Source: Verrucomicrobiia bacterium
GTDB lineage: Bacteria; Verrucomicrobiota; Verrucomicrobiia; Limisphaerales; UBA1319
Direction of reading: 5' to 3'
Assembly: GCA_963664225.1 (NCBI GenBank)
Contig: OY760937.1
Coordinates: forward strand, 5,408,001-5,472,000
Length of the DNA: 64,000 nt
Below the pieces are notes generated by a model. It worked only from the letters and a program-made list of their open reading frames with translations, ran no database searches and was not told the origin of the DNA. Both the position numbers and the translations under genes were made by a program. Positions 21,204 to 63,232 of the stretch are shown here, in pieces (positions within the stretch are counted from its first letter, which is position 1; every line of letters starts with the position of its first letter).

Positions 21204-21371
21204 AGATGCGAATTTTCATTCGCCTTCAAAAGGATGATTGAATCACAAACCGGAGCGGATGCAAAGATTCTTCGCAAACCCGGTTGACGAGCGCCCGCGA
21301 TCCGCATCGGTTTATTTTGACAACCACGGGTTCTTTTGTTTATTATATACCCCGTAAACGAACAACGATTG

Positions 21372-22310
21372 ATGAAAACTATATTGCGCGGTTTCGTCAC
21401 GGCCTTGTCGATGCTGACAATGGGATTTGGATTTAATGCGTTTGCAGTCCAGCGAGGCGCTCAGAATAATGTTTCCGAAGCTGGCAACTATTCCCTGGTG
21501 TATTCGTTGGACATTCCAAACACACCCAACTACGAAAACGGGGTCACTTACGATATCGACAACCGAACCCACCTGCCTGCCTTCAGCCGGATCGCATACT
21601 ATCTGGAATTGCAGGAAGGAACCAACGCACTTAATTTTATCTGGGTCTCGATGGACGCCTTTACGACGAATATTAACAAGATCGGCGTTCCAACGGTCAC
21701 CAGCGGCGCATACTTCCGGCAGTCCGTAGCCAGAATGAATGTTCAGTCGAGTGTCTCCGGGATTGTAAACGGGACCAATCTATCCGGTGGCAACATTGAG
21801 TTTTGGCCTCAAAACTATTCCAGGCCAAATACTGGCAATGTGCCTAATGCCAGTGACGCCGCTTATGACTGGGGCGATAGTCCGTATGCAGGCAATTATG
21901 GTTCCATGCAGGTGCATAATCATGATGCAAAGCAGGTGCTCTTTGCATTCAATCGATGGGGTGGATATGGTGGAATAGCCGATCTGGGGATTGGAAACAG
22001 GGCCGCGTTCGATGTGGACTGGACTTTCGCGACAAACGCCTCCAATTACGTGATCAAATCACTTCAAGTCTATGTGCTTTCCAATGTGAAACCATTTAAA
22101 ATAATCGCACAGGGCTTCCAGCCTGCCGGGAACTTCAGTGTGACTTGCGAGGCGCAATCCGGCACGGCCTATTCACTGTGGCGCAAGCTCGACATTGGGG
22201 TTCCGACATGGACCGAGGTCGCTGCAACAACAGCCTTATCGAATACGGTGACGCTTGTGGATGCTCACGCCACCAATGTTTCAAGCCTTTATCAAGTCAG
22301 AACCCCCTGA
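21372..22310 (+). CDS. Secreted protein: signal peptide, uncharacterised domain of about 200 aa, C-terminal module
   Basis: Signal MKTILRGFVTALSMLTMGFGFNAFA; domain YSLVYSLDIP...NIEFWP...YGSMQVHNHDAKQ recurs in the next gene; TTGACA at 21317 upstream. Confidence 0.8.
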   Translation: MKTILRGFVTALSMLTMGFGFNAFAVQRGAQNNVSEAGNYSLVYSLDIPNTPNYENGVTYDIDNRTHLPAFSRIAYYLELQEGTNALNFIWVSMDAFTTNINKIGVPTVTSGAYFRQSVARMNVQSSVSGIVNGTNLSGGNIEFWPQNYSRPNTGNVPNASDAAYDWGDSPYAGNYGSMQVHNHDAKQVLFAFNRWGGYGGIADLGIGNRAAFDVDWTFATNASNYVIKSLQVYVLSNVKPFKIIAQGFQPAGNFSVTCEAQSGTAYSLWRKLDIGVPTWTEVAATTALSNTVTLVDAHATNVSSLYQVRTP

Positions 22311-22482
22311 TCACAGGCCGACCGACAATAACAACTCTAACACGCCGATTTTCGTTCGGCGTTTTATATTGATCGCAACACCAAAAGAAATGTAACTCCG
22401 TTCGTGAAAGCCCTCTGACTATTCCATTTTCATCTGGTTAAGTAATTGCAGATTGTCTCATTCAAACCGGCGACTCTATTCT

Positions 22483-24318
22483 ATGCGGAAGTTTCTATTT
22501 CTTTTTCCTGTCATTTGTTTAGTGCTGGCTGCACTCCAAGCGGACTTGTCCGCATCAGCCCCCCCGATTCGAATCATGCCCTTGGGCGATTCGATTACTG
22601 AAGGATGGCCAGTGCCCGGCGGTTACAGGGCGCCTCTTTATCGTTTTCTAACCAATGCGGGGTATAATGTCGATTTCGTTGGAACCCTTAAGAATAATAA
22701 TTCATCGGATCTTCCGGATCCCGATCATGAAGGCCACTATGGATGGCGCATGGATATTCTTGATGGAATCATCGATGCCTCCCTGGCGCAGGTGGACGAT
22801 CCGGATGTCATCCTTCTTCTCATTGGCACCAACGATTACTCGCAGAACAGCCAGCTTGCGAACATCGTTCAACGAATGGAAAACCTGGTTGTAAAAATCG
22901 CCACCAACCGTCCTTACGCGAAGATTATCCTCGCCAACCTTCTGGTTCGCGGCGAGCCCTACAACACCAAAATCGAAACCACCTTTAATCCTTATCTTCC
23001 CGCCATCGCACAGCGACAACAAGCCCTGGGCCGCGAAGTCTATTTCGACGACATCAGGAGCGCTGTGCCGCTGGAGGATTTTCCAGATCAGTTGCATCCT
23101 GACGCGACGGGTTATGCCAAAATGGCCACGAACTGGTTTGGCGTCATCACCAATCTCTTCGAACCCGAAGGCAGCAAATCTTTGCCAGGGATTGCCCGCG
23201 TCCTGGGGGCCGGATACGCCAACGTCAAAGTGGTGTTTAGCAAACCCATTGCGGATGAATCGGCAATTCCAGAGCATTTCAGTTTCAGCGGCGGTTTATC
23301 GATTACCCGTGCCGTGCTGGACCCGACCAAGCGGGAGGTCACCCTTACCACATCGCTGCAACAACCATTCACCACTTACTCTGTCACGGTAAATGGCGTC
23401 CACGACCGGACTGCCGCCCAATTGGGAATCATTTCCAACTCCACCGCTTCCTTCATATCTGTTCCTGACCCTGGCGCGAGCAGCAAGGTTGCAGAGGCTT
23501 CCGATTATAAATTGGTTTACTCTTTGGACATTCCGGATATGCCGAATTATGAGCATGGCCTGGTTTATACGCTCGATTACCGCGCCAAGGTTTCCGGATT
23601 CAGCCGCATCGCCTATTATTTGGAACTGCAACCAACCAGCGGACCATTGAACTTCGTTTGGGTGTCGATGGACGCCTTTACGACAAACGTTGACAAGATC
23701 GGCGTGCCGACGGTCGGCAGCGGGGCTTATTTCCGGCAGTCGATCACCAACATGAATGTTCAGTCCAGTGTCACAGGCGTCGTTGGTGGAACAAACCTTT
23801 CCGGCGGCAACATTGAGTTCTGGCCTGACGATTATTCCATGCTCAATTCAGCCAATGTGCCTAATGCCAGTGACGGTCTCGATGACTGGGGTGACAGCCC
23901 GTATCCAGGCAATTACGGCTCAATGCAGGTGCATAACCATGATGCAAAGCAGGTGATCTTCGCTTTCAACGGCTGGGGCGGGTGGGGTGGAGTGGCCGAT
24001 CTTGGCATTGGCAACATGCCGTATGGCGAGCCGGACTGGACCTTCGCCGCAAACGCAACCAATTACGTGATTAAAACCCTCCAGATATTTGTAATGCCCA
24101 TTCCTCACATCACGCGTGGTTACTTTGAAGCGCCTTCCCAATTTTCGCTCAACTGGGACGCGCAACCCGGCGCAAGGTACTCCGTTTTCAAGAATCTGAC
24201 GCTCGATTCATCAAACTGGACCAGGATAGGGGGGCTAACCGCGACCTCAAACGTGGCGGTTTTCATCGATTCGGATGTGACCAATTCAGAGAGTTATTAT
24301 CACATCTCAAGTCCGTAA
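22483..24318 (+). CDS. Secreted SGNH/GDSL hydrolase (probable carbohydrate esterase) with Ig-like, uncharacterised and C-terminal domains
   Basis: IRIMPLGDSIT, GGYR, HEGHYG, IGTND, DQLHP catalytic blocks; signal peptide. Confidence 0.88.
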   Translation: MRKFLFLFPVICLVLAALQADLSASAPPIRIMPLGDSITEGWPVPGGYRAPLYRFLTNAGYNVDFVGTLKNNNSSDLPDPDHEGHYGWRMDILDGIIDASLAQVDDPDVILLLIGTNDYSQNSQLANIVQRMENLVVKIATNRPYAKIILANLLVRGEPYNTKIETTFNPYLPAIAQRQQALGREVYFDDIRSAVPLEDFPDQLHPDATGYAKMATNWFGVITNLFEPEGSKSLPGIARVLGAGYANVKVVFSKPIADESAIPEHFSFSGGLSITRAVLDPTKREVTLTTSLQQPFTTYSVTVNGVHDRTAAQLGIISNSTASFISVPDPGASSKVAEASDYKLVYSLDIPDMPNYEHGLVYTLDYRAKVSGFSRIAYYLELQPTSGPLNFVWVSMDAFTTNVDKIGVPTVGSGAYFRQSITNMNVQSSVTGVVGGTNLSGGNIEFWPDDYSMLNSANVPNASDGLDDWGDSPYPGNYGSMQVHNHDAKQVIFAFNGWGGWGGVADLGIGNMPYGEPDWTFAANATNYVIKTLQIFVMPIPHITRGYFEAPSQFSLNWDAQPGARYSVFKNLTLDSSNWTRIGGLTATSNVAVFIDSDVTNSESYYHISSP

Positions 24319-24486: not shown

Positions 24487-25752
24487 CTATTTGGAGGCAG
24501 AGATGGTGATGGGATCCGAAACGGTTCGTGATCCATAGCGATCGACGGCCACGGCTTTGAGTTCATGGATCCCCTTGGGAATGTGCTTCCAAACAATGGT
24601 GTAGGGGTTTTGTGTGGCCAGGCCCAGGAAACGGCTTCCCGTGTAAAAACCGACGTATCGTATGTCACCGTCCGCATCGCTCGCGTCAGCCTTGATGGTG
24701 ACGGATGACTGCGCCGGGAAATCAGCGCCATTTTTCGGCGAGGTTATGCTGACCTGCGGTGCGAGGTTGGTGACTGAAAACATGGCTATGGCTGTGGAGC
24801 TTGTTCCGGCAACATCGAAAGCACGGGCAACGATCCAATGTTTGCCGGGGGGCACATTGTTCCAGGTGAGGGTAAAAGGACTATTGGTGAAAACACCAAG
24901 ACGGCGTCCATCTCCATGCACTTCGATTCTGGTGATCGCATCATCCGGATCGGATGCGGTTCCTTTGATTTCCACATTCGCCGGGAGCGAAAAGACCGAA
25001 TGATTTACAGGGCTGAGCAAGGTCACCACGGGCGGTTCGTTCGTTACCGTTATTTCGATTGGCGCGGAAAGGGCGGATTTTCCGAAGGAATCCGTGGCTC
25101 GCGCAAAAAGTGTGTGTTTTCCTGCAGGCGCATTGGTCCAGGTGATGGTGAATGGACTGTTTGTGGATTTGCCGATCCAATCGTCGCCAGCATAAAAGCT
25201 CACCTTCTGCACTGTGTCATCGGCATCCGATGTCCCGGCGATGAGCTGGATATTGGCTGGCATGGTGAACATCGCCCCGTTGGTGGGACTGGTCAGTGAG
25301 ACGGTTGGCGGCAGGTCATTGAAGATGTCGTCCACGAGTGTCACTTTAGCGGTTTTATGAGTGGCCAACGTGTATAAAGCATTGGTCTTCAATGTTAATA
25401 TCACTGTTTTGTTACCCCGCTTTTTCAGATCAACCAGAGGCTGAATGACAACATCCGACGCAAGAAAACCATCTGGGATCGTGACTGAATCCGTGATCTT
25501 CACATAGTCGCCGCCGTTCGAGGCGGATCCACTTATGTCGTAGCTGACCACAAGGTCGCCGTTGGTGGCACTGGCACGGATTATGGTAAAGGCGGCCGAG
25601 CTGGACCCCACCAGCGCGATGGGATCAGTAGCGCGGATTTCCAGTCCGGGGCCGCTGGTTGAAACAGGAAAATCGGCAAAGAGGGCTTGTGCATTGAGAA
25701 AGACCGAAGCCAGCATCAAACTGACCTTGATATTAAAGTGCTTAATGTGCAT
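24487..25752 (-). CDS. Secreted Calx-beta-like plus three bacterial Ig-like repeat protein
   Basis: Signal peptide; VSYDISGSASNGGDY; three PPxVxLxSPxNxxxF...ASDxD...V.FY...PFTxxW.N.P.G.H.L.A.A.D repeats. Confidence 0.8.
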   Translation of the reverse strand: MHIKHFNIKVSLMLASVFLNAQALFADFPVSTSGPGLEIRATDPIALVGSSSAAFTIIRASATNGDLVVSYDISGSASNGGDYVKITDSVTIPDGFLASDVVIQPLVDLKKRGNKTVILTLKTNALYTLATHKTAKVTLVDDIFNDLPPTVSLTSPTNGAMFTMPANIQLIAGTSDADDTVQKVSFYAGDDWIGKSTNSPFTITWTNAPAGKHTLFARATDSFGKSALSAPIEITVTNEPPVVTLLSPVNHSVFSLPANVEIKGTASDPDDAITRIEVHGDGRRLGVFTNSPFTLTWNNVPPGKHWIVARAFDVAGTSSTAIAMFSVTNLAPQVSITSPKNGADFPAQSSVTIKADASDADGDIRYVGFYTGSRFLGLATQNPYTIVWKHIPKGIHELKAVAVDRYGSRTVSDPITISASK

Positions 25753-28536: not shown

Positions 28537-29445
28537 ATGGACTCTTCAATAAACCCCTCAAAAGTTTCCGCTTCCTCGCCGGAAATTGAGATCCAATCCC
28601 CTTCAAACACCTTGTGGCGTTCTTTCCGAACTTACTTTGCCAGCGAAATCGCCTGGATGGGAGCCGCAAAGGCCGCGGTGGTTTGCTTGATGGTTGGAGC
28701 GTTGGTGCTGCTCTTTGGCAGTTCCTGCGGAACCGTCCAGCGAACCGTGATCGTCCCCGCTGAAATAGAAGGAGCCACGTATGCCGGCAACAAGGCGTGC
28801 ATGGAATGCCACACCAATATCTGCCGGGTTTTTCCCATGAACGCCCATGCGCGTGTTGACTCGGACAAAACCCAGATGCCCGGCCAGACTGGTTGCGAAT
28901 CCTGTCACGGTCCAGCCAGTAAACATATTGCCGTCGGCGGAGGGCGCGGCAAATTCATCATCAATCCGCGGAAGGATCCCGAAGCCTGTTTTCAGTGCCA
29001 TCTGGATGTCCAGGGCCAGTTTCACCTGCCTCAGCGTCATCCTGTGCTGGAGGGGCGGATGAACTGCGCGCAGTGCCACGATCCGCATGGAAAGGATGTA
29101 TTCAAGCCTTCCAATGGTCTCGCGATGGGGCGCCTTAATGAATCCTGCGCACAATGTCATCGGGACCAGACGCGTCCCTTTGTCTATGAGCATCCCGCAC
29201 TGCGTGAGGGTTGTGTGACCTGTCATTCGCCGCACGGATCGATAAACTCGAAAATGTTGGTCGAGCGGGATGTGAATTTATGCCTTAAGTGCCATGTGCA
29301 GATGGCGGGGGGCGGTGTGGGGCCGGGGCAGGTATATATTGGGAAGATTGAGCATTCGGCCTATGTCCGTCAGGGCACATGCTGGAGTGCGGGCTGTCAC
29401 ACAGCCGTTCACGGGTCCAACATGAGCCGCCTGCTTGTCTATTAA
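28537..29445 (+). CDS. MtrA/DmsE-like periplasmic multiheme cytochrome c (7 CxxCH plus one CX4CH)
   Basis: CMECH, CESCH, CFQCH, CAQCH, CAQCH, CVTCH, CLKCH, CWSAGCH; CHDPHG and terminal VHGSN; possible lipobox FGSSC; start may be ATG 28657. Confidence 0.9.
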   Translation: MDSSINPSKVSASSPEIEIQSPSNTLWRSFRTYFASEIAWMGAAKAAVVCLMVGALVLLFGSSCGTVQRTVIVPAEIEGATYAGNKACMECHTNICRVFPMNAHARVDSDKTQMPGQTGCESCHGPASKHIAVGGGRGKFIINPRKDPEACFQCHLDVQGQFHLPQRHPVLEGRMNCAQCHDPHGKDVFKPSNGLAMGRLNESCAQCHRDQTRPFVYEHPALREGCVTCHSPHGSINSKMLVERDVNLCLKCHVQMAGGGVGPGQVYIGKIEHSAYVRQGTCWSAGCHTAVHGSNMSRLLVY

Positions 29446-29454
29446 GGAGCCACC

Positions 29455-31908
29455 ATGAAATCATACTGGATAAACCATCCTTTGGCGCGGATTGCCCTCG
29501 TGGAACTGGCTCTGGCAACAACTGGATTCGCGGCCGACACGCCCGCAGTGGATGTTTCAAAGCTCCCTCCGGCAGCGACACGCAAGGTCGATTATGAAAA
29601 GGACATTAAACCGATCCTGGAGACCGCTTGTTTCCTGTGCCATGGCCCTGAAAGTCCCAAGAGTCGCTTCAATCTGACCACGCAGGAAACAGCCTTGAAG
29701 GGTGGACGGCGCGGGGTGGATATTGTGCCAAAACAAAGCGCGCAAAGCCCCCTCGTCCACTATATATCCGGCGTCATTGAGGATTTGCACATGCCCCCGG
29801 GCAATGCCAAAGCCCTGACGCCTGGCGAGATCGGGCTCCTGCGTGCGTGGATCGATCAGGGACCAGAGTGGTCAAAAGCAGAACCCCCGGGACCGCCCAT
29901 GACATTTTCGGCCTCTCCACAGCTCCGGTGGATTGCTGTCAGCGGTGACGAGGCGAAGTTTCGGGAGCATTACTGGGTCAATGACGGCTGGGGCGGCGGG
30001 CTCAGGGAATTTGAACTGGTCGGGAAGAAATCCCCACACGACACCGTCCGGGTCGAGGGCCGCATCCTGCCTGCGGAACACGATTACAAAACCTCCGTAT
30101 CGTATGCCCGCCAGGACCTGGGTTATGCGCGATTTGACTGGGAGCAGTATCGCAAATATTACGATGATTCGGGCGATTATTATCCGGGCCTGCACATCAT
30201 TCCCTACCGGCTGGACCAGGATCTCCATCTCGACATGGGTAAGGCAAAGTTTGAACTCGGATTAAACAAGCCCGACTGGCCCAGGATTAAACTGGGTTAC
30301 GATTATCAATATAAAGAAGGGAACAAAACAAGCCTGGCCTGGGGATCTGTTGGCGCGCGGCCTCCCGAATACAATGCCCTCGATAGTCGCAAAATCTATC
30401 CCTCCTTTAAGTACGTGGACGAACACGCCCACTTGATTCATTTGGATATCGATCATGATTCCCCTGTCGTCCGCCTCACGGACAATTTTCAGGCCGAATT
30501 TTACACACAGGATGACCAGCTTCACGAGGTCACCTATGCCAGCGCGGTTTCCGGGAATGCGGAACGGTTTGCCGTCGTCAAGGAACGCTATGAGCATTTC
30601 CAGGCGGCCAATGCCTTTCGACTCGAAAAACAGGTCAACTCCTGGCTGTATCTCTCCGCGGGTTATCTCTTCAGCACATTGGACGGGGATAGCATGTTCA
30701 ACGCATCGACATTGCTCTCACCGGTCTCCACGGCAGGCTATTCAGGCGATGACAAATTCTGGCTGAGCCACCAGATCCTGGTCGATCAGCAAACCCACAC
30801 TTTCAATGTCAACACACTCCTTGGTCCCTGGGACGGACTGAATATTTCAGCGGGCATTCAAAACGAATGGATGTCGCAGCATGGATTTGGCGATGTCAGC
30901 CTTAACGAGGGTGATCCAACTAATCCATTGACCTTTATTGAGCAACCTGCAATACTGCGTTCTGACATGGACCGTGTCACCACCGACGAACAGGTCGGCA
31001 TGCGTTACACTAAAATTCCATACACGGTAATCTATGCGGAAGGCCGCTTCCAGCAGGAGGCCATGGGACAGGCGGATGAAATGCATGAAACGCCCTCTTT
31101 GCTGGGACATGACTTCCTCCAAAACACTGATGTGTCCGGGGACTTGAAGGAATACCGGACGGGCTTCGATCTTTCGCCCTGGCGGAAGATCAGCCTCAAC
31201 GCCAGTATTCGTCACCGCGATAAACAGACGGATTACGACCATTTGACGCGCCTGCAGCGCACAGATGCCGGGGCATTTCCCTATGATGGATATCCGGCGT
31301 TTATCAAATCGCGTAATGTTAATACAGACGAATTTCAAACCAAGCTCGCGTACCGGCCTTTCCCCTGGTGGAAGGCGACCCTGACATATCAATTGGTCTC
31401 CACGGATTACAGGACAGAAACGGCCAGTGTATCCGGCGATATAACACCCGGCGGCCCGGCGACCGCCGCAACTTTTGATTCCGGCATCTATTCCATCAAC
31501 AACACGTTCACGCCGTGGCGGCGTCTGAGTATTTCGGGAACCTTTTCCTACCGGGACGGACGCACGAAGACCGCGTACAACGGAATTGCCGGCGTAGTTC
31601 CTTACGAGGGGGACGTTTTCAGTGTGATCGCGAGCTCCACTTATGTCCTCACCGAAAAAACAGATTTGGACGCCAGCTATTCCTTTTCCCGCGCCGATTA
31701 CCGTCAGAATAACGCCGCAAGTGGATTGCCTCTGGGCATCAATTATGACTGGCACAGCGTGATGGCGGGAGTGCGTCGTGAGATCAGCAAGAACATGACT
31801 GCGCGCCTGCAATACGGTTTCTTTCGATATGCAGAACCGACAAGTGGTAACGCGGCCAATTACGATGCTCACGCGATCTTTGCGACATTGCTCGTGCGTT
31901 TGCCGTGA
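29455..31908 (+). CDS. MtrB/PioB-like outer-membrane beta-barrel with N-terminal planctomycete-type monoheme cytochrome c domain
   Basis: AAGGAG RBS; signal peptide; VDYEKDIKPIL..CFLCHG...MPP...LLRAWIDQG; then about 670 aa of alternating Tyr-rich beta-strands; 9 nt after the multiheme gene. Confidence 0.8.
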   Translation: MKSYWINHPLARIALVELALATTGFAADTPAVDVSKLPPAATRKVDYEKDIKPILETACFLCHGPESPKSRFNLTTQETALKGGRRGVDIVPKQSAQSPLVHYISGVIEDLHMPPGNAKALTPGEIGLLRAWIDQGPEWSKAEPPGPPMTFSASPQLRWIAVSGDEAKFREHYWVNDGWGGGLREFELVGKKSPHDTVRVEGRILPAEHDYKTSVSYARQDLGYARFDWEQYRKYYDDSGDYYPGLHIIPYRLDQDLHLDMGKAKFELGLNKPDWPRIKLGYDYQYKEGNKTSLAWGSVGARPPEYNALDSRKIYPSFKYVDEHAHLIHLDIDHDSPVVRLTDNFQAEFYTQDDQLHEVTYASAVSGNAERFAVVKERYEHFQAANAFRLEKQVNSWLYLSAGYLFSTLDGDSMFNASTLLSPVSTAGYSGDDKFWLSHQILVDQQTHTFNVNTLLGPWDGLNISAGIQNEWMSQHGFGDVSLNEGDPTNPLTFIEQPAILRSDMDRVTTDEQVGMRYTKIPYTVIYAEGRFQQEAMGQADEMHETPSLLGHDFLQNTDVSGDLKEYRTGFDLSPWRKISLNASIRHRDKQTDYDHLTRLQRTDAGAFPYDGYPAFIKSRNVNTDEFQTKLAYRPFPWWKATLTYQLVSTDYRTETASVSGDITPGGPATAATFDSGIYSINNTFTPWRRLSISGTFSYRDGRTKTAYNGIAGVVPYEGDVFSVIASSTYVLTEKTDLDASYSFSRADYRQNNAASGLPLGINYDWHSVMAGVRREISKNMTARLQYGFFRYAEPTSGNAANYDAHAIFATLLVRLP

Positions 31909-31955
31909 AACGCTTTTGCACAACCCGTTTGACCCTTCGGACGGGAAGGTCTGTT

Positions 31956-33308
31956 TTATTCTTTTGTGATGCTCAGTTTATCCATCATCTCGTAAAGCGT
32001 GGGACGGCTGATTCCCAATTCCGTGGCCGCCTTGCTGATGTTGCCATTGTTCCGGCGCAGGGCTTGTTGGATCATGGTTAATTCCAATCCTTCCCGCGCT
32101 TCCTTGAGGCTGCGGGCCATGCTGTTTTCCACAGAATCGGTTAATTCAAGATTGGCGGCTGTGACCCATTTTCCATCGGACATGATGACGGCGCGTTTGA
32201 CGCGATTCTCAAGCTCCCTGACGTTTCCCGGCCAGTGGTAACATTGAAGAGCGCGCAGGGCGTCCTGGCTGAATTTTTGGTTTTCCTTCTTACTTTGCGC
32301 GGCAAAGGCTTGCAGGAAGGTCTGCGCCAGAATGAGCACATCGTTCTTGCGTTCCCGCAACGGAGGTAATTTCAGGACGACGACCGCGAGCCTGTAATAG
32401 AGATCCTCCCTGAATCTGGCTTCCTGCATGGCGCGTTTGAGGTCGGTATTGGTGGCGGCGATGACACGGGCATCCACGGGGATTTTTTCACGGCCACCGA
32501 CGCGTTCGATGTATAGTTCCTGAAGGTAGCGCAGGATTTTGACCTGGAGATGGGAGGGCAGTTCGCCGATTTCATCCAGGAAGAGTGTGCCGCCCGAGGC
32601 GGTTTCAATGCGTCCGCGACGTTGCACATGCGCGCCCGTGAAGGAGCCTTTTTCGTGTCCAAACAACTCGCTTTCCAGAAGGTTTTCCGGAATGGCCCCG
32701 CAATTGATGGCTACAAACGGGCCGTCTTTGCGCGGGCTGGAACGGTGAATGGCCTGGGCCGCCATTTCCTTTCCGGTGCCGCTCTCTCCCAGGATCAGGA
32801 CCGGCGCGTCTGTCGTGGCGACTTTGCGAATCTGGGCGAAAACCTCCTGCATCAGGGGGCCGGCGCCAAGCATCCCTTCAAAGGAGTCCGGTCCGAGCCG
32901 CTGCTCCATTTCGTGGAAATCCTTTTCGAGACGGGCGACATGGATGGCCCGTTTAAGAATGACGGCCAGTTCGGTCATATCCACCGGTTTGCAAAGAAAA
33001 TCATAGGCCCCATGCCCGATGGCCTGGAGGGCGTTATCTTTTTCGGACTGGCCGGTGATCATGATGATTTTGGCGCGAGAATCCCGGGCGAGCAGATCGG
33101 CGAGGGTGTTGAATCCCTCCTTGCCGTCGGCGGGATTGGGAGGCAGGCCCAGGTCCAGCAGAACGACGATGGGGTGATGTTCCTGATATCTGGCCAGGGC
33201 GGAGGCGCGGTCTTCAGCGAGCGAAACATCGTAATTCTCAGCGAGGGCCCACTTCATTTGCGAGCGTATGTCTTCATCATCATCCACGATGAGCAGGTGC
33301 GGTTTCAT
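31956..33308 (-). CDS. prsR: PEP-CTERM-box sigma-54 response regulator (NtrC family)
   Basis: Receiver LLDLGLPP, GESGTGKE, GSFTGA, FLDEIG, WPGNVREL, Fis-type HTH LGISRPTLY; adjacent to prsK. Confidence 0.88.
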   Translation of the reverse strand: MKPHLLIVDDDEDIRSQMKWALAENYDVSLAEDRASALARYQEHHPIVVLLDLGLPPNPADGKEGFNTLADLLARDSRAKIIMITGQSEKDNALQAIGHGAYDFLCKPVDMTELAVILKRAIHVARLEKDFHEMEQRLGPDSFEGMLGAGPLMQEVFAQIRKVATTDAPVLILGESGTGKEMAAQAIHRSSPRKDGPFVAINCGAIPENLLESELFGHEKGSFTGAHVQRRGRIETASGGTLFLDEIGELPSHLQVKILRYLQELYIERVGGREKIPVDARVIAATNTDLKRAMQEARFREDLYYRLAVVVLKLPPLRERKNDVLILAQTFLQAFAAQSKKENQKFSQDALRALQCYHWPGNVRELENRVKRAVIMSDGKWVTAANLELTDSVENSMARSLKEAREGLELTMIQQALRRNNGNISKAATELGISRPTLYEMMDKLSITKE

Positions 33309-33309
33309 G

Positions 33310-35421
33310 TTAGTTGTGATGGAGTGGAAGCATTATTTTAAACGTGGTTCCCCGGTCTGGTTCGCTTTGCACCTCAATTTTTCCCTGATGCGCGTCGAGG
33401 ATCATTTTGCTATGGAACATGCCGATTCCAATTCCTTTTTTCTTGGTGGTTTGAAAAGGGCGAAAGAGCGAATTGCGCATGAACTCCGCGCTCATGCCGC
33501 AGCCGTTGTCGCTGACGGATACAATGGCCCATCCGTTCTGGCGCCCGGTTTCGACATGGATCTCTCCTCCTTTTCCCAAGGCGTCGCGGGCGTTAAGAAT
33601 CAGATTGGTAATCACGCTTTGAATCTGGCCGGGATCGATCATGACAGGCGGCGTTGGAGACAGGTTTTTAACGAGAGTGATTCCAGGCATTTCATGCAAA
33701 CCAGCCAGGGCGGCGTTTGCGATCAGGCCAAGGTCGGTTTCCACGGGGTGAAGCTTTAGTTCCTTGCGCAACAAACTCAGGCGCTCAATCAGCTCATTGA
33801 TATGGTTGACACTGCGACCGACCGCCCTTAGCGCGTCCGCCCGGAATTCGGGATCGTCAAAATGCAGCGGAAGGTTTTGGAGCATCAAGGAAAGAGTGGC
33901 GGCGGTGTTCTTGAGGTCATGGACAAAGAAAGCCGACATGGTCTGAAAGGCCTCCATCTCCCGGGCCTGCAGGAGACGGTGCGAAAGATGGATGTTTAAT
34001 AAATTACTGGCGATCTGGTCTCCCAGGCATTTGAGGAGATCGAGGTCTTCCGTCGAATAGGCAAGCCCGCCAACCCGGTCCCAGACGGTCATGATTCCAA
34101 GCAGTTGTCCCCCCGCCGAAAGGGCCGCGCACAGATGTCCACCGCCTTTGCCGTAAATATCCGGATTAATTTTATTCAACAGGGCATAACGCGCGTCATT
34201 TCCCTGGGCAATGTCGATTGGATGGGACTGCCTGGAAGCAGCCTGGAGAAGGGTGGCGACCTTCTCCAGAGGCAGGTGAAATTCCAGCGCGGCGGCTTCG
34301 GTGATCGAGGTTGACGCGCCGAAAACAAGGCGCTGATTCTGCGAATCGACGAGCCAAATTGTCACTGAGAGGGCATGGAATGTTTCGGAAACCAACTGCG
34401 TGGTGGTTCGACAGAGGGACGGGCTGTCCATGATGGTGGCGGTTCGTCCGGTGAAGGCGCGCCAAATCTGCCTGTAATCATAAATTGAGCGTTTAAAATG
34501 GCGGCTGACGAAGCGTTTGGTTTGTTGTTGGAAACGGTCGGAAAGGAGAAGCAGGCCGCAAAGAACGACCGCCAATAACATGATGAATGCCTCGATCGGG
34601 AATGATGCGCTGCCGCCCCAATGGGCGACTACTTTGGCGAAGACTCCAACGATCAGCAAATAAAGACCGGCAAAAATGACCGTCAACGACCGGTGCAGAA
34701 CGCTTAATGAGGGATACAGATCGAGCGTGATGGCTTGGGTGCGCAGGAGCGCCACGGTGATCAATCCCGAGGCGAGGACCACGGAGACGGCCTGCGCCGA
34801 TTTGATTGAGAGGCCATAGGAAGAAAACAAGACGACCTGACTGCTGACATAAAACCTAAAAATAAACAGCACTCCCAAGCCCAGCATCATGAATTTGATG
34901 CGCCAGCGCATGGTGCCGACAGCGGCCTGAAACGTGCGCTCCAGGTTCATGAGAATCAGGACCGAGGCGACCAGAAAAATGAAATGGAGGGCGACTCCCG
35001 TGGAACTTAGATTCAAATTCAATTCCCCCGAAGGCATTGTCCGCAGATCGCGAAACAAGGGGTGGAACGGCAGGGATAGAACGATGGCCAGGGGCAACGC
35101 GAAGGCCAGGATCAGCGGCAGTCTCCATTTTTTGATGAAATCAAGGTGGTTTCCCCGGGAATAACTCAAGCTGAACAGCAGCCACAATCCCGGTTGGAGG
35201 GCCATTGCGGTCAGATTTAACTTTTGCCACGAAAGGACTGTATCAGGAGAAAGGGCCATCAGGCTCATGGCATCGAAACACGATTCGGAAGCCAGCAGAA
35301 ACATGCCGCCGGCGAAAGTCAAATTGGCCAGGGAACGCATGCCAGGCCGGAGAGCTGCAACGGCCAGGGCAAGCGCGCAACAGGCTGCCGCCACGACAAG
35401 TATAACGGAAATGGCTGTCAT
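33310..35421 (-). CDS. prsK: PEP-CTERM system histidine kinase
   Basis: N-terminal multi-TM region, FVSRHF...YDYRQIW, GAF, MSAFFVHDLKN, DNGCGM, FRPFQTTK..GIGIGM. Confidence 0.88.
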   Translation of the reverse strand: MTAISVILVVAAACCALALAVAALRPGMRSLANLTFAGGMFLLASESCFDAMSLMALSPDTVLSWQKLNLTAMALQPGLWLLFSLSYSRGNHLDFIKKWRLPLILAFALPLAIVLSLPFHPLFRDLRTMPSGELNLNLSSTGVALHFIFLVASVLILMNLERTFQAAVGTMRWRIKFMMLGLGVLFIFRFYVSSQVVLFSSYGLSIKSAQAVSVVLASGLITVALLRTQAITLDLYPSLSVLHRSLTVIFAGLYLLIVGVFAKVVAHWGGSASFPIEAFIMLLAVVLCGLLLLSDRFQQQTKRFVSRHFKRSIYDYRQIWRAFTGRTATIMDSPSLCRTTTQLVSETFHALSVTIWLVDSQNQRLVFGASTSITEAAALEFHLPLEKVATLLQAASRQSHPIDIAQGNDARYALLNKINPDIYGKGGGHLCAALSAGGQLLGIMTVWDRVGGLAYSTEDLDLLKCLGDQIASNLLNIHLSHRLLQAREMEAFQTMSAFFVHDLKNTAATLSLMLQNLPLHFDDPEFRADALRAVGRSVNHINELIERLSLLRKELKLHPVETDLGLIANAALAGLHEMPGITLVKNLSPTPPVMIDPGQIQSVITNLILNARDALGKGGEIHVETGRQNGWAIVSVSDNGCGMSAEFMRNSLFRPFQTTKKKGIGIGMFHSKMILDAHQGKIEVQSEPDRGTTFKIMLPLHHN

Positions 35422-35503
35422 TATCTGGACAAAACTCCCACCGGGCCGCTCCGGTTCCTGATTGACTTTCCTGGTTGGCGAATAGCGCGCCTGAGTGCGG
35501 TTT

Positions 35504-36634
35504 TTATCGCGTCGGCGGGGTGAAACTCACGCTGGTGCCCACAGGGGCCGCCCCTTTAATAACCGCATTGCGGCCTTCATTGACGGCGATCGTGCTGACA
35601 AATTGGTTCAGGATCTGATCGCCAAAGATACCCAGTTTGCGATATGGCGCGAAGGGCACATAGACGATGTCGCCGGGTTCCAGACGGACATCCCTGGCCT
35701 GGCCCCGGAAAACGCGTCCAAAATCAACAATGGCGATTCGTGGATTGGCCAGAGAGCCGCGAAGAACCGCGACATGGCTCACATAAGCGTAGGGAATGGT
35801 ACCGCCGACGCTGCTGATGGCGCCCACCAGCGAGGTTGGCTCGGTATAGGGGATCGCATTGGGCATGGCCACCGCGCCCATGACATAAACGGTGCGCGCC
35901 ACCGCCGAGCGCAGATAGACAAAGTCGTCCGGCTGCAAATAAATATTCTGGGAGAGGTCGCCCATGCGCAGTAAACGATGGAAATTGACTTTCAACATCT
36001 GGCCGCCCCGCATGACGAAACTGTTCTGCAGGTCTGCGGTTTCCTCGGAGGAACCCGGTATGCCGGAAATGCCGCCGGCCAGGGCGATGGCTTCGAGGAC
36101 GGTTGTTGGAGTGGCCAGGGAATAGACTCCTGGAGTTTGAACATTGCCCAGAATCCAAAGTCGGCGGCTGCCCACCGCTTTGAGGGTCAAGACGACTTCT
36201 GGCTGCATCCGGACGTATTTGGTCATCTCCTTCTCGAGCATTTGCTTGGTTTCGGCAAGGGTGAGTCCCCATGCGAACATTCCCGGAAGAAGGTTGAAAT
36301 AAATTTTACCATCAGGCCCCACGGTTGTGGTGGTGCGCGACAGCGGATCGCCCAGAAGTTCAATTTCGACGATGTCGCTGGGACCAAGCCGGAATAGATC
36401 GGAGGGTGGCTTGAGCCATTCCGCATGCACCATGTTGGTGGAATCGACGGTGGTGAATGCCTGCTCGTCCAGGGTGGTCATTTTGGGTGGCCGACCAGGA
36501 TCAGCGAGGGCCGCAACCGGTTTGCCATCGGGCGGAGTGGATTGATGAGGGTCAAACCGGGGTCCGTAACTTTGGCATCCAGCAAACAGAGCGAGACCCA
36601 GAAATCCGATGGCCAGGTGTGTGAAGTTTTTCAT
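35504..36634 (-). CDS. Wza-like polysaccharide export lipoprotein (Poly_export plus SLBB domains)
   Basis: Lipobox LFAGC; FRLGPSD..V.PDGKI, GNVQTPGVY, LQPDDFVY, LEPGDIVYVP. Confidence 0.88.
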   Translation of the reverse strand: MKNFTHLAIGFLGLALFAGCQSYGPRFDPHQSTPPDGKPVAALADPGRPPKMTTLDEQAFTTVDSTNMVHAEWLKPPSDLFRLGPSDIVEIELLGDPLSRTTTTVGPDGKIYFNLLPGMFAWGLTLAETKQMLEKEMTKYVRMQPEVVLTLKAVGSRRLWILGNVQTPGVYSLATPTTVLEAIALAGGISGIPGSSEETADLQNSFVMRGGQMLKVNFHRLLRMGDLSQNIYLQPDDFVYLRSAVARTVYVMGAVAMPNAIPYTEPTSLVGAISSVGGTIPYAYVSHVAVLRGSLANPRIAIVDFGRVFRGQARDVRLEPGDIVYVPFAPYRKLGIFGDQILNQFVSTIAVNEGRNAVIKGAAPVGTSVSFTPPTR

Positions 36635-36637
36635 GGG

Positions 36638-39637
36638 CTATTTGAGAAAAGGATCCGCAATCAAAGGCCCGATATTCGCGCCAGTCCAGGTGATGACAGC
36701 GCTCCGGGTAAAGTCTGAGATAACCGATTCGAGTAATTCCGAGGCCTTGGACCACGGCTGCCGATACACATATACGATGTCGCGGGGTTTGAGTTGGAAA
36801 TCGGGTTGTCTGGCATTGTAAATCTTGGAGGCGCTGACCACGAAGGTTTCCGGGTTCTTGAGCGAACCGCGGACAATCAATAGATTGCTCTTGTAGGCCC
36901 TTTCCGTAAAGCCACCGCGGGTAATGATCGCTTTCAGGGCGGTCATATCCGAGGAGTAGGGCGCCACACCGGGGGTTCGCACTTCTCCAAGGACATAGAC
37001 CTCCTGCAAATCCGCAGGAGGGAAGAACAGGTAATCGTCGGGGGCGATGGTTTGATTTTGATTCAAATCGCCCCTCAAAAACAAGGCTTCAAAGTCGATG
37101 TTGACCCTTTGAAACGCGCCATCCGGATTGCGGCGGATCATGAAGCTGCGGGAAAGGTCGGCCAATTGGACCGAGGTGCGTTGTTGGAGAACGCTAGTGA
37201 AGCCGCGGGCGCGGGCGATGGCTTCGACAATCGTTGTGGGGCGGTCGAGCGGAAACACGCCTTTCTGATTCACGTTGCCGAGGATGAAATATTTTTTGCT
37301 GTTGTAGGCGGTGGGTATGATGATGACCCGCACGGAACGATAGAATTTGGACAGGACTTTCTCGAGTTCCACACGCAATTCGTCCACGGTGAGACCCGCT
37401 GCCTGAACATCCTGCGCTTGTAGATAGGTCAGCCGCCCGTCGGGCCCGATAAAAACGCCCAGCTTGGCTGAGTCAGGTTGCTCATAGAGGGAAATGTTCA
37501 AGACATCCCCGGGACCGAGAGTGAGGTGTTTTTGCCAATCCGCCAATTTGTCGGGTCCGGCGGCTGAAAAAGAAATGGTGTTGGTGGGAGCTGTTTCGAC
37601 CGCTGCAACCGGTGCGTTATCCTGGGCGTGAATCCGCATTGGCGTCACCAGACACGCAAGGAGCATTGCGGCCATGCTGGCGGTCGCGCTGAAGCCTTTA
37701 CGCCAGGCAGGCGTTTTTGCATGGTTCAAAACACTACCCACCACGTTGCTGCGCGAAAGACGCAGGGTCTCCAGTTGGGCGCGGGTTTCATCGATGTTGG
37801 CCATATCTTGTCCACATAACCAGATCACCTGGGGCACTTTTTCGGCCAGGAGAACCGATTCGGCTCTGGACGCTGGCGGCAGCTCCACAAAGACGATCAG
37901 GTTTTCCGTTGCGTTCCATTGTTGAAGGGTCGTCCGCCATTGTTCACGACGCTCCAGATTCCATGCCCAGGCAGGCACAGGAATGCGAACCACGGATTTT
38001 TGAGTGGGAGTCATAAGAGCATTGTTGGCTTCAGAGGTGTTTTCCAGTGTGGCAATGGGGCTGTTTTCAACCGGCGCGGCCGGATCGGCATCGAAATCGG
38101 CGCCGTCGGATTGGGGGGCGGCGTCAACGGTGAGCACGCGGTAGCCTTGTTTTCGGGCCGCTTCGGCAAGGAGTTTGATCCAGGTGGAGCGGCCCTCTCC
38201 ATGCGATGAGGAAGTGAATCCGCATACGAGCGCTTCTTCAGTGGTTTTTTTCAAGGTCCCTTTCAGCATCGCAAGGGTTCTGAAGGCCCATTGTTCCCGG
38301 GCATCCTTATTCATTTCCCGCAAATCTCCCAAGGCCGCCAGCACGGGCAAAGGAATGGCCCGCATTAAATCGACTTTGGATCGTATCCGGCGGTCTTTCG
38401 TTTCGACCCAGAGGATCGACAGGATCGCCAAAAGCAGGCCAATCGCCGCCGCCAGCACACTTCCTATTATGGCAGGATTCAGTTTCTGAGACCAGTTTAA
38501 ATCTTCGATTTTGGCCGGTTCAAACAGCCTGTAATAACCCGAGATGGCGGTCTCGAGGAGCTGGATTTCCTGCTGGCGCGTGGAGAGTAAATCCCGATTG
38601 GCTATGAGGGATTGGTAGCGGGATTTTATTTTGGTGTATTCGAGACGCTTTTCGGGCAATCCAGCCAGTTCCTCGCGCAGTTGTTTGATTTCCGCGGTTG
38701 CTTTCTCAAGTTCCCGATTCAATCCGATTTTCTGGCTTCGAAGTTCCACCACGCGCATGTAAAGCGTCCCTGCCATGGTGTTGCTCCAATTCATGCTTCC
38801 AGAAGTGAATTGCGGACCCCGCTCGGCAATCTGACGCTGGATGGCTGTCACGGACGCCCGGAGTTCCTTGATCCTGGGGTGTTCCTCGGTGAACCGTAAA
38901 AGCGCGCTATCCAACGCCTCCTGCGCCGCGAGCAGGGCGGGGGATTGCCGCGTGATTTCCTGCATCAGGTTCGTGATTTGCAGGTCGGTGGTATCGATTT
39001 GAGAGCGGAGTTTATCTGTCTGCATCTCCAAATCGGCCCGATGTTGCAGTCGCGCGGGAGTCTCTTTTTCCAGGTCCACAAAACCAGTTTCTTTTTGATA
39101 CTGGGTCAGTTCCCGATCCGTTGCCGCGAGTTTGGAGTCCATGGCTGAAAGCCTTTGTTTGAGGGCAACGTTGAGGGACTGGACTTCGTTGGATTGAAGA
39201 TTCTGGGCGAGCCTGATCGCCTCGTTCGCGTAGGTGTTGGCCAGTTGGACGGTTTGATCGGGATTCTTTCCCTTCAGACTCAGGGCGATCAGCTCGGTAT
39301 TGGGGACTGCGGTGACCCGGGAGCACGCCTCGATTTCTTCGGGCGTGATCCGCATTCCCGCCTTCGCGGACACATCGCGCAGCAGTCCGGGCGACCTCAT
39401 CAGGTCAATGAGCGTGGGAACTGAGAACTCGCGTAATTTAAAGACTTCACCCTCGTAATTGTAGGTGGTAAAAGCCGGGGGAGCGTTGCGAACCAGTTTG
39501 ACGGTCGCAGTGTGATTGGCCAGGTCAAAACCAGCCACGAATCCGGCAAACGCGGCGAAGCCGGCGACAATAAGAAGCACATGCCATCGTTGCAGGAGGG
39601 CATCGACAAAACGTGCCAAATCCATGCGGTGTTTCAT
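36638..39637 (-). CDS. Wzc-like chain-length/pseudokinase protein fused to a Wza-like Poly_export/SLBB module
   Basis: TM, coiled coil (FTEEHPRIKEL), TM, Walker-A-like TSSSHGEGRST, GSVLN, then hydrophobic MAAMLLACLVTPMRIHA-QD, LGPGDVL..IGPDG, GNVNQKG, GEVRTPG, LKPRDIVYV; one uninterrupted 999-aa ORF. Confidence 0.82.
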   Translation of the reverse strand: MKHRMDLARFVDALLQRWHVLLIVAGFAAFAGFVAGFDLANHTATVKLVRNAPPAFTTYNYEGEVFKLREFSVPTLIDLMRSPGLLRDVSAKAGMRITPEEIEACSRVTAVPNTELIALSLKGKNPDQTVQLANTYANEAIRLAQNLQSNEVQSLNVALKQRLSAMDSKLAATDRELTQYQKETGFVDLEKETPARLQHRADLEMQTDKLRSQIDTTDLQITNLMQEITRQSPALLAAQEALDSALLRFTEEHPRIKELRASVTAIQRQIAERGPQFTSGSMNWSNTMAGTLYMRVVELRSQKIGLNRELEKATAEIKQLREELAGLPEKRLEYTKIKSRYQSLIANRDLLSTRQQEIQLLETAISGYYRLFEPAKIEDLNWSQKLNPAIIGSVLAAAIGLLLAILSILWVETKDRRIRSKVDLMRAIPLPVLAALGDLREMNKDAREQWAFRTLAMLKGTLKKTTEEALVCGFTSSSHGEGRSTWIKLLAEAARKQGYRVLTVDAAPQSDGADFDADPAAPVENSPIATLENTSEANNALMTPTQKSVVRIPVPAWAWNLERREQWRTTLQQWNATENLIVFVELPPASRAESVLLAEKVPQVIWLCGQDMANIDETRAQLETLRLSRSNVVGSVLNHAKTPAWRKGFSATASMAAMLLACLVTPMRIHAQDNAPVAAVETAPTNTISFSAAGPDKLADWQKHLTLGPGDVLNISLYEQPDSAKLGVFIGPDGRLTYLQAQDVQAAGLTVDELRVELEKVLSKFYRSVRVIIIPTAYNSKKYFILGNVNQKGVFPLDRPTTIVEAIARARGFTSVLQQRTSVQLADLSRSFMIRRNPDGAFQRVNIDFEALFLRGDLNQNQTIAPDDYLFFPPADLQEVYVLGEVRTPGVAPYSSDMTALKAIITRGGFTERAYKSNLLIVRGSLKNPETFVVSASKIYNARQPDFQLKPRDIVYVYRQPWSKASELLESVISDFTRSAVITWTGANIGPLIADPFLK

Positions 39638-62368: not shown

Positions 62369-63232
62369 TTATTGCCGTTCGCTCGTGCGATCCACCACCC
62401 ACCTCCAATCCCGCTGAATGCCTTGGGTGATTCTGGCCGGGGAGTAGTCTGCATATTTAACCGGTTCTGCGGTTCCCGGGTCCAACCACTTGTGAATTTC
62501 CGCATGACCGTCTGCAAAGACAAAGAATCCAGCCCGATTGTGGAATGATCCGGGCAAGTCAACAAACTGAGTGGTTGTAACATTCACAAAGAAACAACCA
62601 TCATTAATGCTATCGCTTTGCTCATCAAGGAAAACCCACGCTTTGACGGGAGCCAGTTTCTTCATGTCTGTCATTTTCTTATATATGGTGTGGGAGGTTC
62701 CATACCAATTTTTGTCGTTGCCGTCTCCCATGCAGGAATTCATGGAAATACTACGCACACGTTGCGACCAACCCAAAGTGCGCTGAGCCTGTGATACAAA
62801 TTTGTCAGCGGGGCATTTGTAAATCTGTTTGGATTTAGCAGAGTATTTGGAGAGCTTGCCCCATCTTTCATTGATGAGAAAATTGTAATTCGTGTTGTCC
62901 TGACGCGCTGTCCAATCCATCCATCCAGAGCACCAGCTAGTGTTGTTGACACCACCTTGGGCATCGCCGCCGTGATGGTTTTCAACCAGCATGCCGTTAT
63001 AATCGTCGGAATACATCATCCACGCCAGTCCGAGCTGCTTGCCGTTGTTCATGCAGAACACGCCCTGAGTCTTGGATTTGGCTTTGGAGAGCGCTGGCAA
63101 AAGCATGCCCGCCAGAATGGCGATGATGGCAATGACCACCAGTAGTTCGATTAGGGTGAATCCTTTCACCGCCATCCTCCGGGCGGCTCTGGGACTCCAC
63201 TGTTTGACTTCAGATACTTTCATACTCAGCAA
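62369..63232 (-). CDS. Prepilin-type N-terminal cleavage/methylation protein with H-X9-DG motif
   Basis: [49 protein letters not shown]. Confidence 0.92.

Follow-up and report, generated by a model that had tools for sequence, protein, structure and literature searches.

A verrucomicrobial 26-strand barrel protein with its own cytochrome c domain, paired with an octaheme cytochrome as a candidate outer-membrane electron conduit

Gram-negative cells use porin-cytochrome conduits to exchange electrons with minerals, humics and electrodes. To our knowledge, all large conduits characterised structurally combine a cofactor-free barrel with separate periplasmic shuttles. In a 64,000-nucleotide stretch of a Verrucomicrobiia bacterium genome (contig OY760937.1 of assembly GCA_963664225.1, positions 5,408,001 to 5,472,000; hereafter the window), a gene at positions 29455 to 31908 raises the question of what such a barrel does when it carries a heme domain of its own. 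The gene encodes a protein, P0001, in which a monoheme cytochrome c domain precedes a 26-strand barrel, and it lies directly downstream of a gene for an octaheme cytochrome. We consider it fairly probable that the two proteins form a conduit of the MtoAB/PioAB kind in which a relay heme is tethered on the periplasmic side; electrons would probably move inward through it. The features of the pair, in window coordinates, are as follows.

28537..29445, plus strand: octaheme c-type cytochrome gene, a probable lipoprotein and the predicted lumen-filling partner, with seven CXXCH motifs plus CWSAGCH (CX4CH)
28726-28728, plus strand: lipobox Cys64 of the octaheme protein, at the end of the hydrophobic leader (alignment A3)
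28798-29400, plus strand: the eight heme motifs of the octaheme protein
29443..29454, plus strand: operon junction read from the sequence, where the Shine-Dalgarno sequence TAAGGAG shares bases with the octaheme stop codon and is followed by a 6-nt spacer and the ATG
29455..31908, plus strand: monoheme-cytochrome/26-strand barrel fusion gene (P0001), 817 residues plus stop codon, one uninterrupted open reading frame (ORF)
29455..29532, plus strand: signal peptide, residues 1-26, with a hydrophobic N-terminus, a predicted local distance difference test score (pLDDT) below 50 and a putative cleavage site between TGFA and AD
29587..29871, plus strand: PSCyt1 cytochrome c domain, residues about 45-139 (Pfam PF07635; model helices at 47-134)
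29629-29643, plus strand: CFLCH of the PSCyt1 domain, residues 59-63 (translation)
29791-29799, plus strand: distal M113-P-P of the PSCyt1 domain, residues 113-115 (translation)
29899..31902, plus strand: outer-membrane beta-barrel, 26 strands at residues 149-816, then terminal Pro817 (DSSP on the AlphaFold2 model)
31934..31953, plus strand: terminator-like hairpin 26 nt past the barrel stop codon, a weak call from a consensus scan that gave 11 such sites in the region against 4.3 expected

An earlier reading of the window from its letters alone (the sequence-only reading) had described a signal peptide, a planctomycete-type cytochrome c domain at residues about 45-139 and an operon with a multiheme cytochrome, with no MtrC or CymA homolog nearby. 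Each of these points holds. CFLCH, MPP and WIDQG (residues 132-136) are all present in the translation, and Pfam PF07635 matches residues 59-115 with an expectation value (E) of 7.2e-12 and a score of 46.2 bits, the cutoff being 22; PccH gives a sub-threshold match, and none of the Pfam barrel families is matched. The octaheme gene lies upstream on the same strand, its stop codon separated from the barrel ATG by 9 nt. A scan of window ORFs of at least 80 residues for CXXCH found no MtrC- or CymA-like multiheme gene, and the only other carrier of the motif is UvrA, which we do not count as a c-type cytochrome. There are likewise no MtoD or PioC genes near the pair. A minus-strand ORF of 358 residues (30847-31923), entirely within the barrel gene, was taken as a shadow ORF.

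Conservation of the heme site was assessed in an alignment of 112 rows (A2; 82 fused and 30 heme-free proteins). The fused proteins share 26-82% overall identity, and C59, C62 and H63 are present in all 82 of them, as are P114 and P115, while the distal M113 is present in 81. In a 60-protein subset of A2 scanned for PSCyt1 and PF11854 (MtrB_PioB), PSCyt1 scored above cutoff in 30 of 30 fused relatives. The Cys, His and Met ligands named in the sequence-only reading are therefore conserved. With a profile built only from the heme domain (A4, 53 rows), a search of PDB sequences gave matches to hydrazine synthase alpha in its C-terminal heme domain (5c2v_A, E 8.4e-7), to Geobacter PccH (4rlr_A, E 1.3e-4) and to FoxE (5mab_A, E 4.3e-5, profile positions 17-109), a putative Fe(II) oxidase from Rhodobacter ferrooxidans. 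The alignment with FoxE superposes the MPP and AWIxQGA motifs. Modelled by itself, the domain reached an AlphaFold2 pLDDT of 88.6, and Foldseek returned hydrazine synthase alpha (E 2.8e-4), FoxE (E 3e-3) and then weak class I cytochromes c.

These relatives bear on how the tethered heme is ligated and on what it may do. PccH is required for electron uptake from electrodes, and heme alpha-II of hydrazine synthase is bis-His. Both hemes of FoxE have a Met distal ligand, i.e. are His/Met-ligated (PMC10654088). Near-invariance of M113, together with the Met ligation of the FoxE hemes, supports a His/Met-ligated tethered heme. FoxE (R. ferrooxidans SW2), PccH and hydrazine synthase alpha are the nearest solved relatives of the domain; unlike P0001, they are soluble or enzyme-bound and none is fused to a barrel. 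FoxE is moreover a diheme protein with swapped Met ligands, unlike the single tethered heme here (PMC10654088).

An AlphaFold2 model of the whole barrel protein, built from A2, had a mean pLDDT of 92.2 and a predicted template modelling score of 0.83. Residues 1-26 are disordered in it, four helices form a domain at 47-134, and after a short linker come the 26 strands (149-816), which uphold the large beta-barrel of the sequence-only reading. That reading was to be refuted by a C-terminal region that does not model as a barrel, or by ligands that homologues do not conserve; both were tested and neither was found. MtrB, MtoB and PioB also have 26 strands (PMC10654088). In a Foldseek search of the PDB, MtrB (6r2q_B) ranked first (E 4.4e-15), with a template modelling (TM) score of 0.55 by query length and 0.68 by target length and 12% identity over 744 alignment columns. 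All later PDB hits were 22-strand TonB-dependent receptors with TM scores of about 0.35-0.45. The turns of the model are short on one side and the loops longer on the other. In outer-membrane barrels the short turns and the termini are usually periplasmic; with this topology, both termini and the heme domain would lie in the periplasm.

The barrel protein ends in VRLP, and the sequence-only reading had pointed to RLP in place of the usual aromatic end. The difference is real. In the heme-free barrels the last residue falls in the L816 column and is Phe in 25 of 30, Tyr in 2 and Leu in 2. The fused forms have one residue extra past that column, which is Pro in 40 of 82 and otherwise Gln, Asn, Arg, Lys or Glu, and their penultimate residue is Leu (29), Trp (17) or Phe (16). 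Judged from the alignment, the RLP ending is a trait of the fused subfamily, an extension by one residue beyond the usual terminal position, and no sign of a defect. Because strands 1 and 26 close the barrel beside the linker, we speculate that the C-terminal tail may pack against the heme domain.

What would the barrel enclose? The octaheme protein matches Pfam Paired_CXXCH_1 (E 3.2e-22) and the DmsE/MtrA family TIGR03508 (E 5.6e-45), the latter at 153.8 bits, below the cutoff of 192.2, and with eight hemes versus ten. Against the GSU2203-family decaheme model of NCBIfam it scores 168.7 bits, below the cutoff of 325. Across an alignment of 53 such octaheme sequences (A3), the eight heme motifs and eight further His are invariant, as is C64, which closes the hydrophobic leader in a lipobox-like ..SSC[ST] context. 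From this pattern, the protein is probably a lipoprotein with eight bis-His hemes.

The fusion extends well beyond the window. A word-indexed protein search gave 1153 matches at E ≤1e-3 among 7997 scored candidates. The best 120 of the 1153 were all about 760-920 residues long, covered 95-100% of the query and had PF07635, and their names, where given, were mostly Verrucomicrobia, Pedosphaera or 'c-type cytochrome domain-containing protein'. One homologue (P0051) is from a cultured bacterium, Pedosphaera parvula Ellin514. An exhaustive search of 50%-identity representatives gave 323 matches at E ≤1e-30. With more than 100 full-length homologues of the fused architecture, the fusion barrel is widespread and conserved and no one-off. 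One relative (P0123, 914 residues) has CXXCH at 41 and at 178 before the barrel and may be a variant with two tethered hemes.

The pairing with an octaheme gene is equally general. A scan of species-representative genomes yielded 80 loci, 56 of them with a full-length or near-full-length homologue; the titles are mostly Verrucomicrobiota, Limisphaerales or Pedosphaera metagenome-assembled genomes (MAGs), with a few odd labels. An octaheme-type ORF of 262-374 residues lies directly upstream on the same strand in 52 of the 56 loci, and the other four start at a contig edge. These 52 ORFs have seven CXXCH motifs and one CX3-4CH, except two that have eight CXXCH instead. A further pair, cut by a contig end (L052), brings the pairing to 53 of 53 loci with upstream DNA. 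The pairing of barrel and octaheme is obligate, and the fusion is no accident. No further ORF with at least three CXXCH motifs was found in the flanks (up to 8 kb per side) of the 52 pairs. In one locus, a second ORF, of 853 residues, follows about 5 kb downstream of the pair (L063:15651-18209, plus strand); it has two CXXCH motifs, and its motif pattern is PSCyt1-like.

We predicted the structure of the complex from barrel residues 46-817 (with A2) and octaheme residues 78-302 (with A3). The interaction prediction score from aligned errors (ipSAE) was 0.91, 0.90 and 0.90 in the barrel-octaheme runs, and the best of three controls scored 0.00; the ipSAE mark used was passed by 116 of 157 solved complexes, and of 215 mismatched pairs 2 passed it, counts that are approximate here given the custom alignments. 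The runs share at least 88% of their contacts, with a partner pLDDT of at least 78. The interface consists of alternate residues of nearly all strands, from 171 to 792, i.e. the lining of the lumen, so the octaheme is predicted to be sheathed in the barrel. Around heme 8, residues 279-284 of the octaheme contact residues 294-313 of the barrel, by strand order the extracellular end of strands 7 and 8, and hemes 1-2 point towards the periplasmic rim. MtrA has the same polarity in MtrB. Modelling of the pair had been proposed with the sequence-only reading, as a way to see whether the multiheme fits the lumen and whether the monoheme contacts it. The multiheme does fill the lumen in the model. 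It shows no confident contact between the two cytochromes: the confident interface residues include none from the PSCyt1 domain (46-145), and as unlisted residues are uncertain this gives no verdict on contact.

Further clues come from the genes around the pair in the relatives. All non-overlapping ORFs from the 56 loci were grouped into clusters, whose representatives were run against Pfam, and the loci were searched again by tblastn. A gene for an extracytoplasmic function (ECF) sigma factor was found in 25 of the 56 loci and one for a 255-residue protein without a Pfam family in 23; in most carriers both are upstream and divergent, and in four they are downstream on the strand of the pair. 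A Big_7 immunoglobulin (Ig)-domain/cupredoxin gene is present in 27 loci. Its product has a plastocyanin/azurin-type N-terminal copper domain in 14 of 24 ORFs scanned and a type-1 copper Cys-His-Met loop in 14 of 26. A CusF+SCO1/SenC fusion gene occurs in 11 of the 56 loci, between the cupredoxin and octaheme genes and directly before the latter. None of the four (sigma factor, 255-residue protein, Big_7/cupredoxin or CusF+SCO1) was found in 24 control loci that share only the PSCyt1 domain. In 26 loci the barrel gene has at least 6 kb of sequence before it and at least 4 kb after it; 17 of them have one or more of these accessory genes and 9 have none.

Several side observations concern the cupredoxin proteins. 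In one locus (L020:3010-4800, plus strand) a cupredoxin and two Big_7 domains are fused to a glucose/sorbosone dehydrogenase of the pyrroloquinoline quinone (PQQ) type (PF07995), which recalls FoxY, the PQQ protein encoded beside FoxE (PMC10654088). Many of the cupredoxin-Big_7 proteins end in a near-identical ..[FY]YRVGRLPNP tail (e.g. L039:5230-6126, L055:5171-6163 and L012:5294-6169). Similar tails, ..LYQVRTP and ..YYHISSP, are found on two unrelated window ORFs (21336-22310 and 22453-24318), and the barrel ends in ..RLP. To judge from these endings, the shared tails might be a lineage-specific sorting or anchoring signal. A Big_7 protein of the window itself (24487-25752, minus strand) was considered as a counterpart of the cupredoxin and rejected: it has only the Ig domains in common, and no cupredoxin.

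How would such a pair work? In the mechanism that we favour, the lipid-anchored octaheme would run through the 26-strand barrel from the periplasmic mouth, where its N-terminal hemes would lie, to the cell surface, where the C-terminal heme 8 would be. The His/Met c-type heme would be held at the periplasmic rim by the short linker, where, as a ninth heme built into the conduit, it would most likely relay electrons between heme 1 and carriers soluble in the periplasm. Elsewhere, relaying electrons between the wire and its carriers is the job of separate proteins such as MtoD. Net flow would more likely be inward, the donors oxidised outside the cell being Fe(II), reduced humics or the like. 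We lean this way because, as in PioAB and MtoAB, there is no surface MtrC-like multiheme reductase, because the tethered heme is related to FoxE and PccH, and because about half of the sister loci add a cupredoxin, with a copper chaperone. This linkage of cupredoxin and chaperone recalls the Cyc2-rusticyanin arrangement of acidophilic iron oxidisers. Since His/Met hemes and cupredoxins generally have a higher potential than bis-His multihemes, they would act as a sink for incoming electrons and a barrier for outgoing ones.

A number of results weigh against this reading. P0001 has no PF11854 Pfam match at E ≤0.01, matches no NCBIfam model (the MtrB model TIGR03509 included), and a family profile searched against PDB sequences retrieves no MtrB at E ≤10. 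MtrB was not found by phmmer of P0001 against PDB sequences either; weak matches of residues 292-340 to haemoglobin alpha (E about 0.002) in PDB sequences were taken as chance. Among the 60 relatives scanned, PF11854 matched 11 at E ≤0.1 and three above the 23-bit cutoff (P0099, 35.5 bits; P0106, 41.7; P0184, 25.3). The barrel thus resembles MtrB in fold, and by sequence it is a remote relative at most. The "MtrB-like porin" of the sequence-only reading stands as a statement about fold, with 6r2q_B the best solved match, and fails as one about family membership; of the two profiles it had named for a search, PSCyt1 scored above cutoff and MtrB_PioB gave no match. The complex score may also reflect likeness to, or memory of, the solved MtrAB structure (6R2Q) and so not be independent evidence. 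In addition, barrels of this type also exist with no tethered heme. In thirty relatives, about 660-730 residues long, there is no CXXCH and the barrel starts directly after the protein's own signal peptide; a FastTree tree built from 652 barrel columns groups 28 of the thirty in a single clade (support 0.999). Of the two outside it, P0184 is an N-terminally truncated fragment and P0169 is genuine, nested among fused forms. As the 28 form one clade, the tree points to what is essentially a single gain or loss of the heme domain. Finally, the window has no cupredoxin, CusF-Sco1 or ECF sigma genes and belongs to a bare class, like 9 of the 26 well-flanked loci. The argument on direction is therefore partly borrowed from relatives, besides being indirect, and an outward reading is a serious rival.

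In that rival, which we regard as rather unlikely, the same conduit would be a respiratory outlet that works outward, electrons entering it in the periplasm at the tethered heme and leaving for Fe(III) or humic quinones outside the cell. In its fold, and in a partner that matches the DmsE/MtrA family below cutoff, the pair does resemble MtrAB, the best-studied outward conduit, and wires of the MtrAB type are in principle reversible. Outward transfer to humics was also what He et al. (2017) proposed for Verrucomicrobia porin/8-heme pairs (PMC5615132), which counts against an inward flow here, and a 2026 preprint reports expressed porin-multiheme clusters in Limisphaerales of anoxic peat (10.64898/2026.05.27.727921). 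However, neither the window nor the flanks (up to 8 kb) of the 52 pairs hold a gene for an MtrC- or OmcB-like surface multiheme, a lack shared by the oxidisers PioAB and MtoAB (PMC6344600). The heme-domain relatives FoxE and PccH are tied to electron uptake, and a His/Met heme with a cupredoxin, being usually of high potential, would make a poor entry to a low-potential chain.

The regulatory genes invite a different explanation, namely a metal-handling or signalling device under ECF sigma control that would carry out Cu/Fe redox chemistry at the surface for uptake or detoxification, or sense redox state for a sigma/anti-sigma pair. The ECF sigma and 255-residue genes, usually divergent beside the pair, and the CusF+SCO1/SenC gene between the cupredoxin and octaheme genes would fit such a device. 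Yet the accessory genes are found in neither the window nor 9 of the 26 well-flanked loci, whereas the octaheme-barrel pair is universal; the Sco1/CusF chaperone would most simply load the adjoining cupredoxin; and nine hemes spanning the membrane would be a heavy investment for a sensor. We consider this explanation improbable. It is far less probable still that the heme domain is vestigial, or the fusion an artefact of assembly or gene calling, and the barrel an ordinary porin, a view to which the heme-free sister barrels lend something. We reject a fusion artefact on the single uninterrupted ORF, here and in the 82 fused homologues, and on the Cys, Cys and His kept in every one of them despite their divergence, and an ordinary porin sits poorly with a lumen predicted to be filled by the octaheme.

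How does the favoured conduit, with its tethered relay heme, compare with known systems? It resembles MtrAB (Shewanella), MtoAB (Sideroxydans) and PioAB (Rhodopseudomonas) in the 26-strand barrel and in an adjacent multiheme, a match below cutoff to the DmsE/MtrA family, that is predicted in the lumen with its C-terminal heme outward, and it shares with MtoAB and PioAB the lack of a surface MtrC-like gene. It differs from all three in that the barrel bears its own c-type heme domain and is not cofactor-free, in a wire of eight hemes rather than ten with an invariant lipobox Cys, and in its host phylum, Verrucomicrobiota. That characterised MtrB/PioB/MtoB porins are heme-free, as the sequence-only reading had it, does not extend to outer-membrane conduit barrels generally, a premise that overlooks Cyc2, a fused monoheme cytochrome-porin of Fe(II) oxidisers (PMC6344600, PMC10654088). 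Cyc2 likewise has one N-terminal CXXCH followed by an outer-membrane barrel in a single polypeptide, and a probable role in electron uptake. However, Cyc2 has about 16-17 strands and no multiheme partner (PMC10654088), against 26 strands and an obligate neighbour, the octaheme, in the predicted lumen here, and the heme domain of P0001 is a folded PSCyt1 domain of about 95 residues; this comparison is one of architecture, not sequence, and no solved structure of Cyc2 is known.

In the same phylum, He et al. (2017, mSphere) described a novel putative conduit of a porin with at least 20 strands beside a cytochrome with eight conserved heme sites (PMC5615132). The passages of that paper considered here mention no heme on the porin, predict PSCyt proteins to be periplasmic or cytoplasmic and not in the outer membrane, and sometimes place an extracellular multiheme cytochrome in the cluster, unlike the pair here (PMC5615132). 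A search with the heme-free relative P0188 returned Verrucomicrobia MAG proteins and no Opitutus entry, so identity with the porin of He et al. is not shown. The EET3 and EET4 clusters of the May 2026 peat preprint were found by anchoring on extracellular multihemes, and the passages considered here mention no heme-bearing porin (10.64898/2026.05.27.727921). The Pcc complex of Geobacter (OmaB-OmbB-OmcB) also partners an octaheme with a porin in one operon (PMC6344600). It differs in its outer dodecaheme lipoprotein, OmcB, which has no counterpart in the window or in the flanks of the 52 pairs, and here the lipobox is on the octaheme; the likeness of the barrel to OmbB is by description. In the papers reached by full-text literature searches, no PSCyt1-barrel fusion was described.

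The other genes of the window appear to be separate from the pair. Window neighbours were rejected as parts of the system, as none has a match over at least half its length in the 56 loci, except UvrA once; those tested for synteny include PrsK, PrsR, Wza/Wzc-like exporters, a TPR protein, a GYF membrane protein and a GDSL lipase. UvrA is encoded about 7 kb upstream of the pair (18273-21203, minus strand), and the exception, in a Pedosphaera sp. MAG (L038:4770-7739), is a 68.6% identical UvrA about 1 kb downstream of the pair, which hints at the affiliation of the window. Directly downstream of the pair and convergent with it (31956-39637, minus strand) are PEP-CTERM/XrtA regulators and two polysaccharide exporters. 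The regulators PrsR (TIGR02915, 615 bits) and PrsK (TIGR02916, 384 bits) both score above cutoffs, and the exporters are Wza-like, one being fused to a chain-length determinant. On the plus strand, a 324-residue protein without a Pfam family (21336-22310) is paralogous to the C-terminal half of a 621-residue GDSL lipase (22453-24318), and their common motif, ..YSLVYSLDIP..NYE.G..Y..D.R.., marks an unnamed repeated domain. A protein at 62381-63223 (minus strand) is 38% identical to a prepilin-type N-terminal methylation motif protein found in 20 of the 56 loci; this family is probably merely abundant in the phylum, and we assume no link to the pair.

Verrucomicrobiota are very common in soils and lakes, and extracellular redox metabolism in them has only been hypothesised; the pair points to such a metabolism in the phylum. 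A barrel that bears its own shuttle heme would be another way of handing electrons over in the periplasm, and as a natural fusion it would mark the face on which the complex docks its carriers. For experiments, the recurrent association with genes for an ECF sigma factor, a cupredoxin and a copper chaperone offers concrete starting points. Limisphaerales/Pedosphaera-type Verrucomicrobia are abundant soil and freshwater bacteria thought to be heterotrophs. We tentatively raise the possibility that they use a nine-heme uptake wire, its last heme supplied by the porin, to pass electrons from extracellular Fe(II) or reduced humics first to a blue-copper protein in the periplasm and from there to an oxidase. 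If true, this would be an unrecognised lithotrophic or mixotrophic trait, and a third outer-membrane conduit architecture, midway between Cyc2 and MtoAB.

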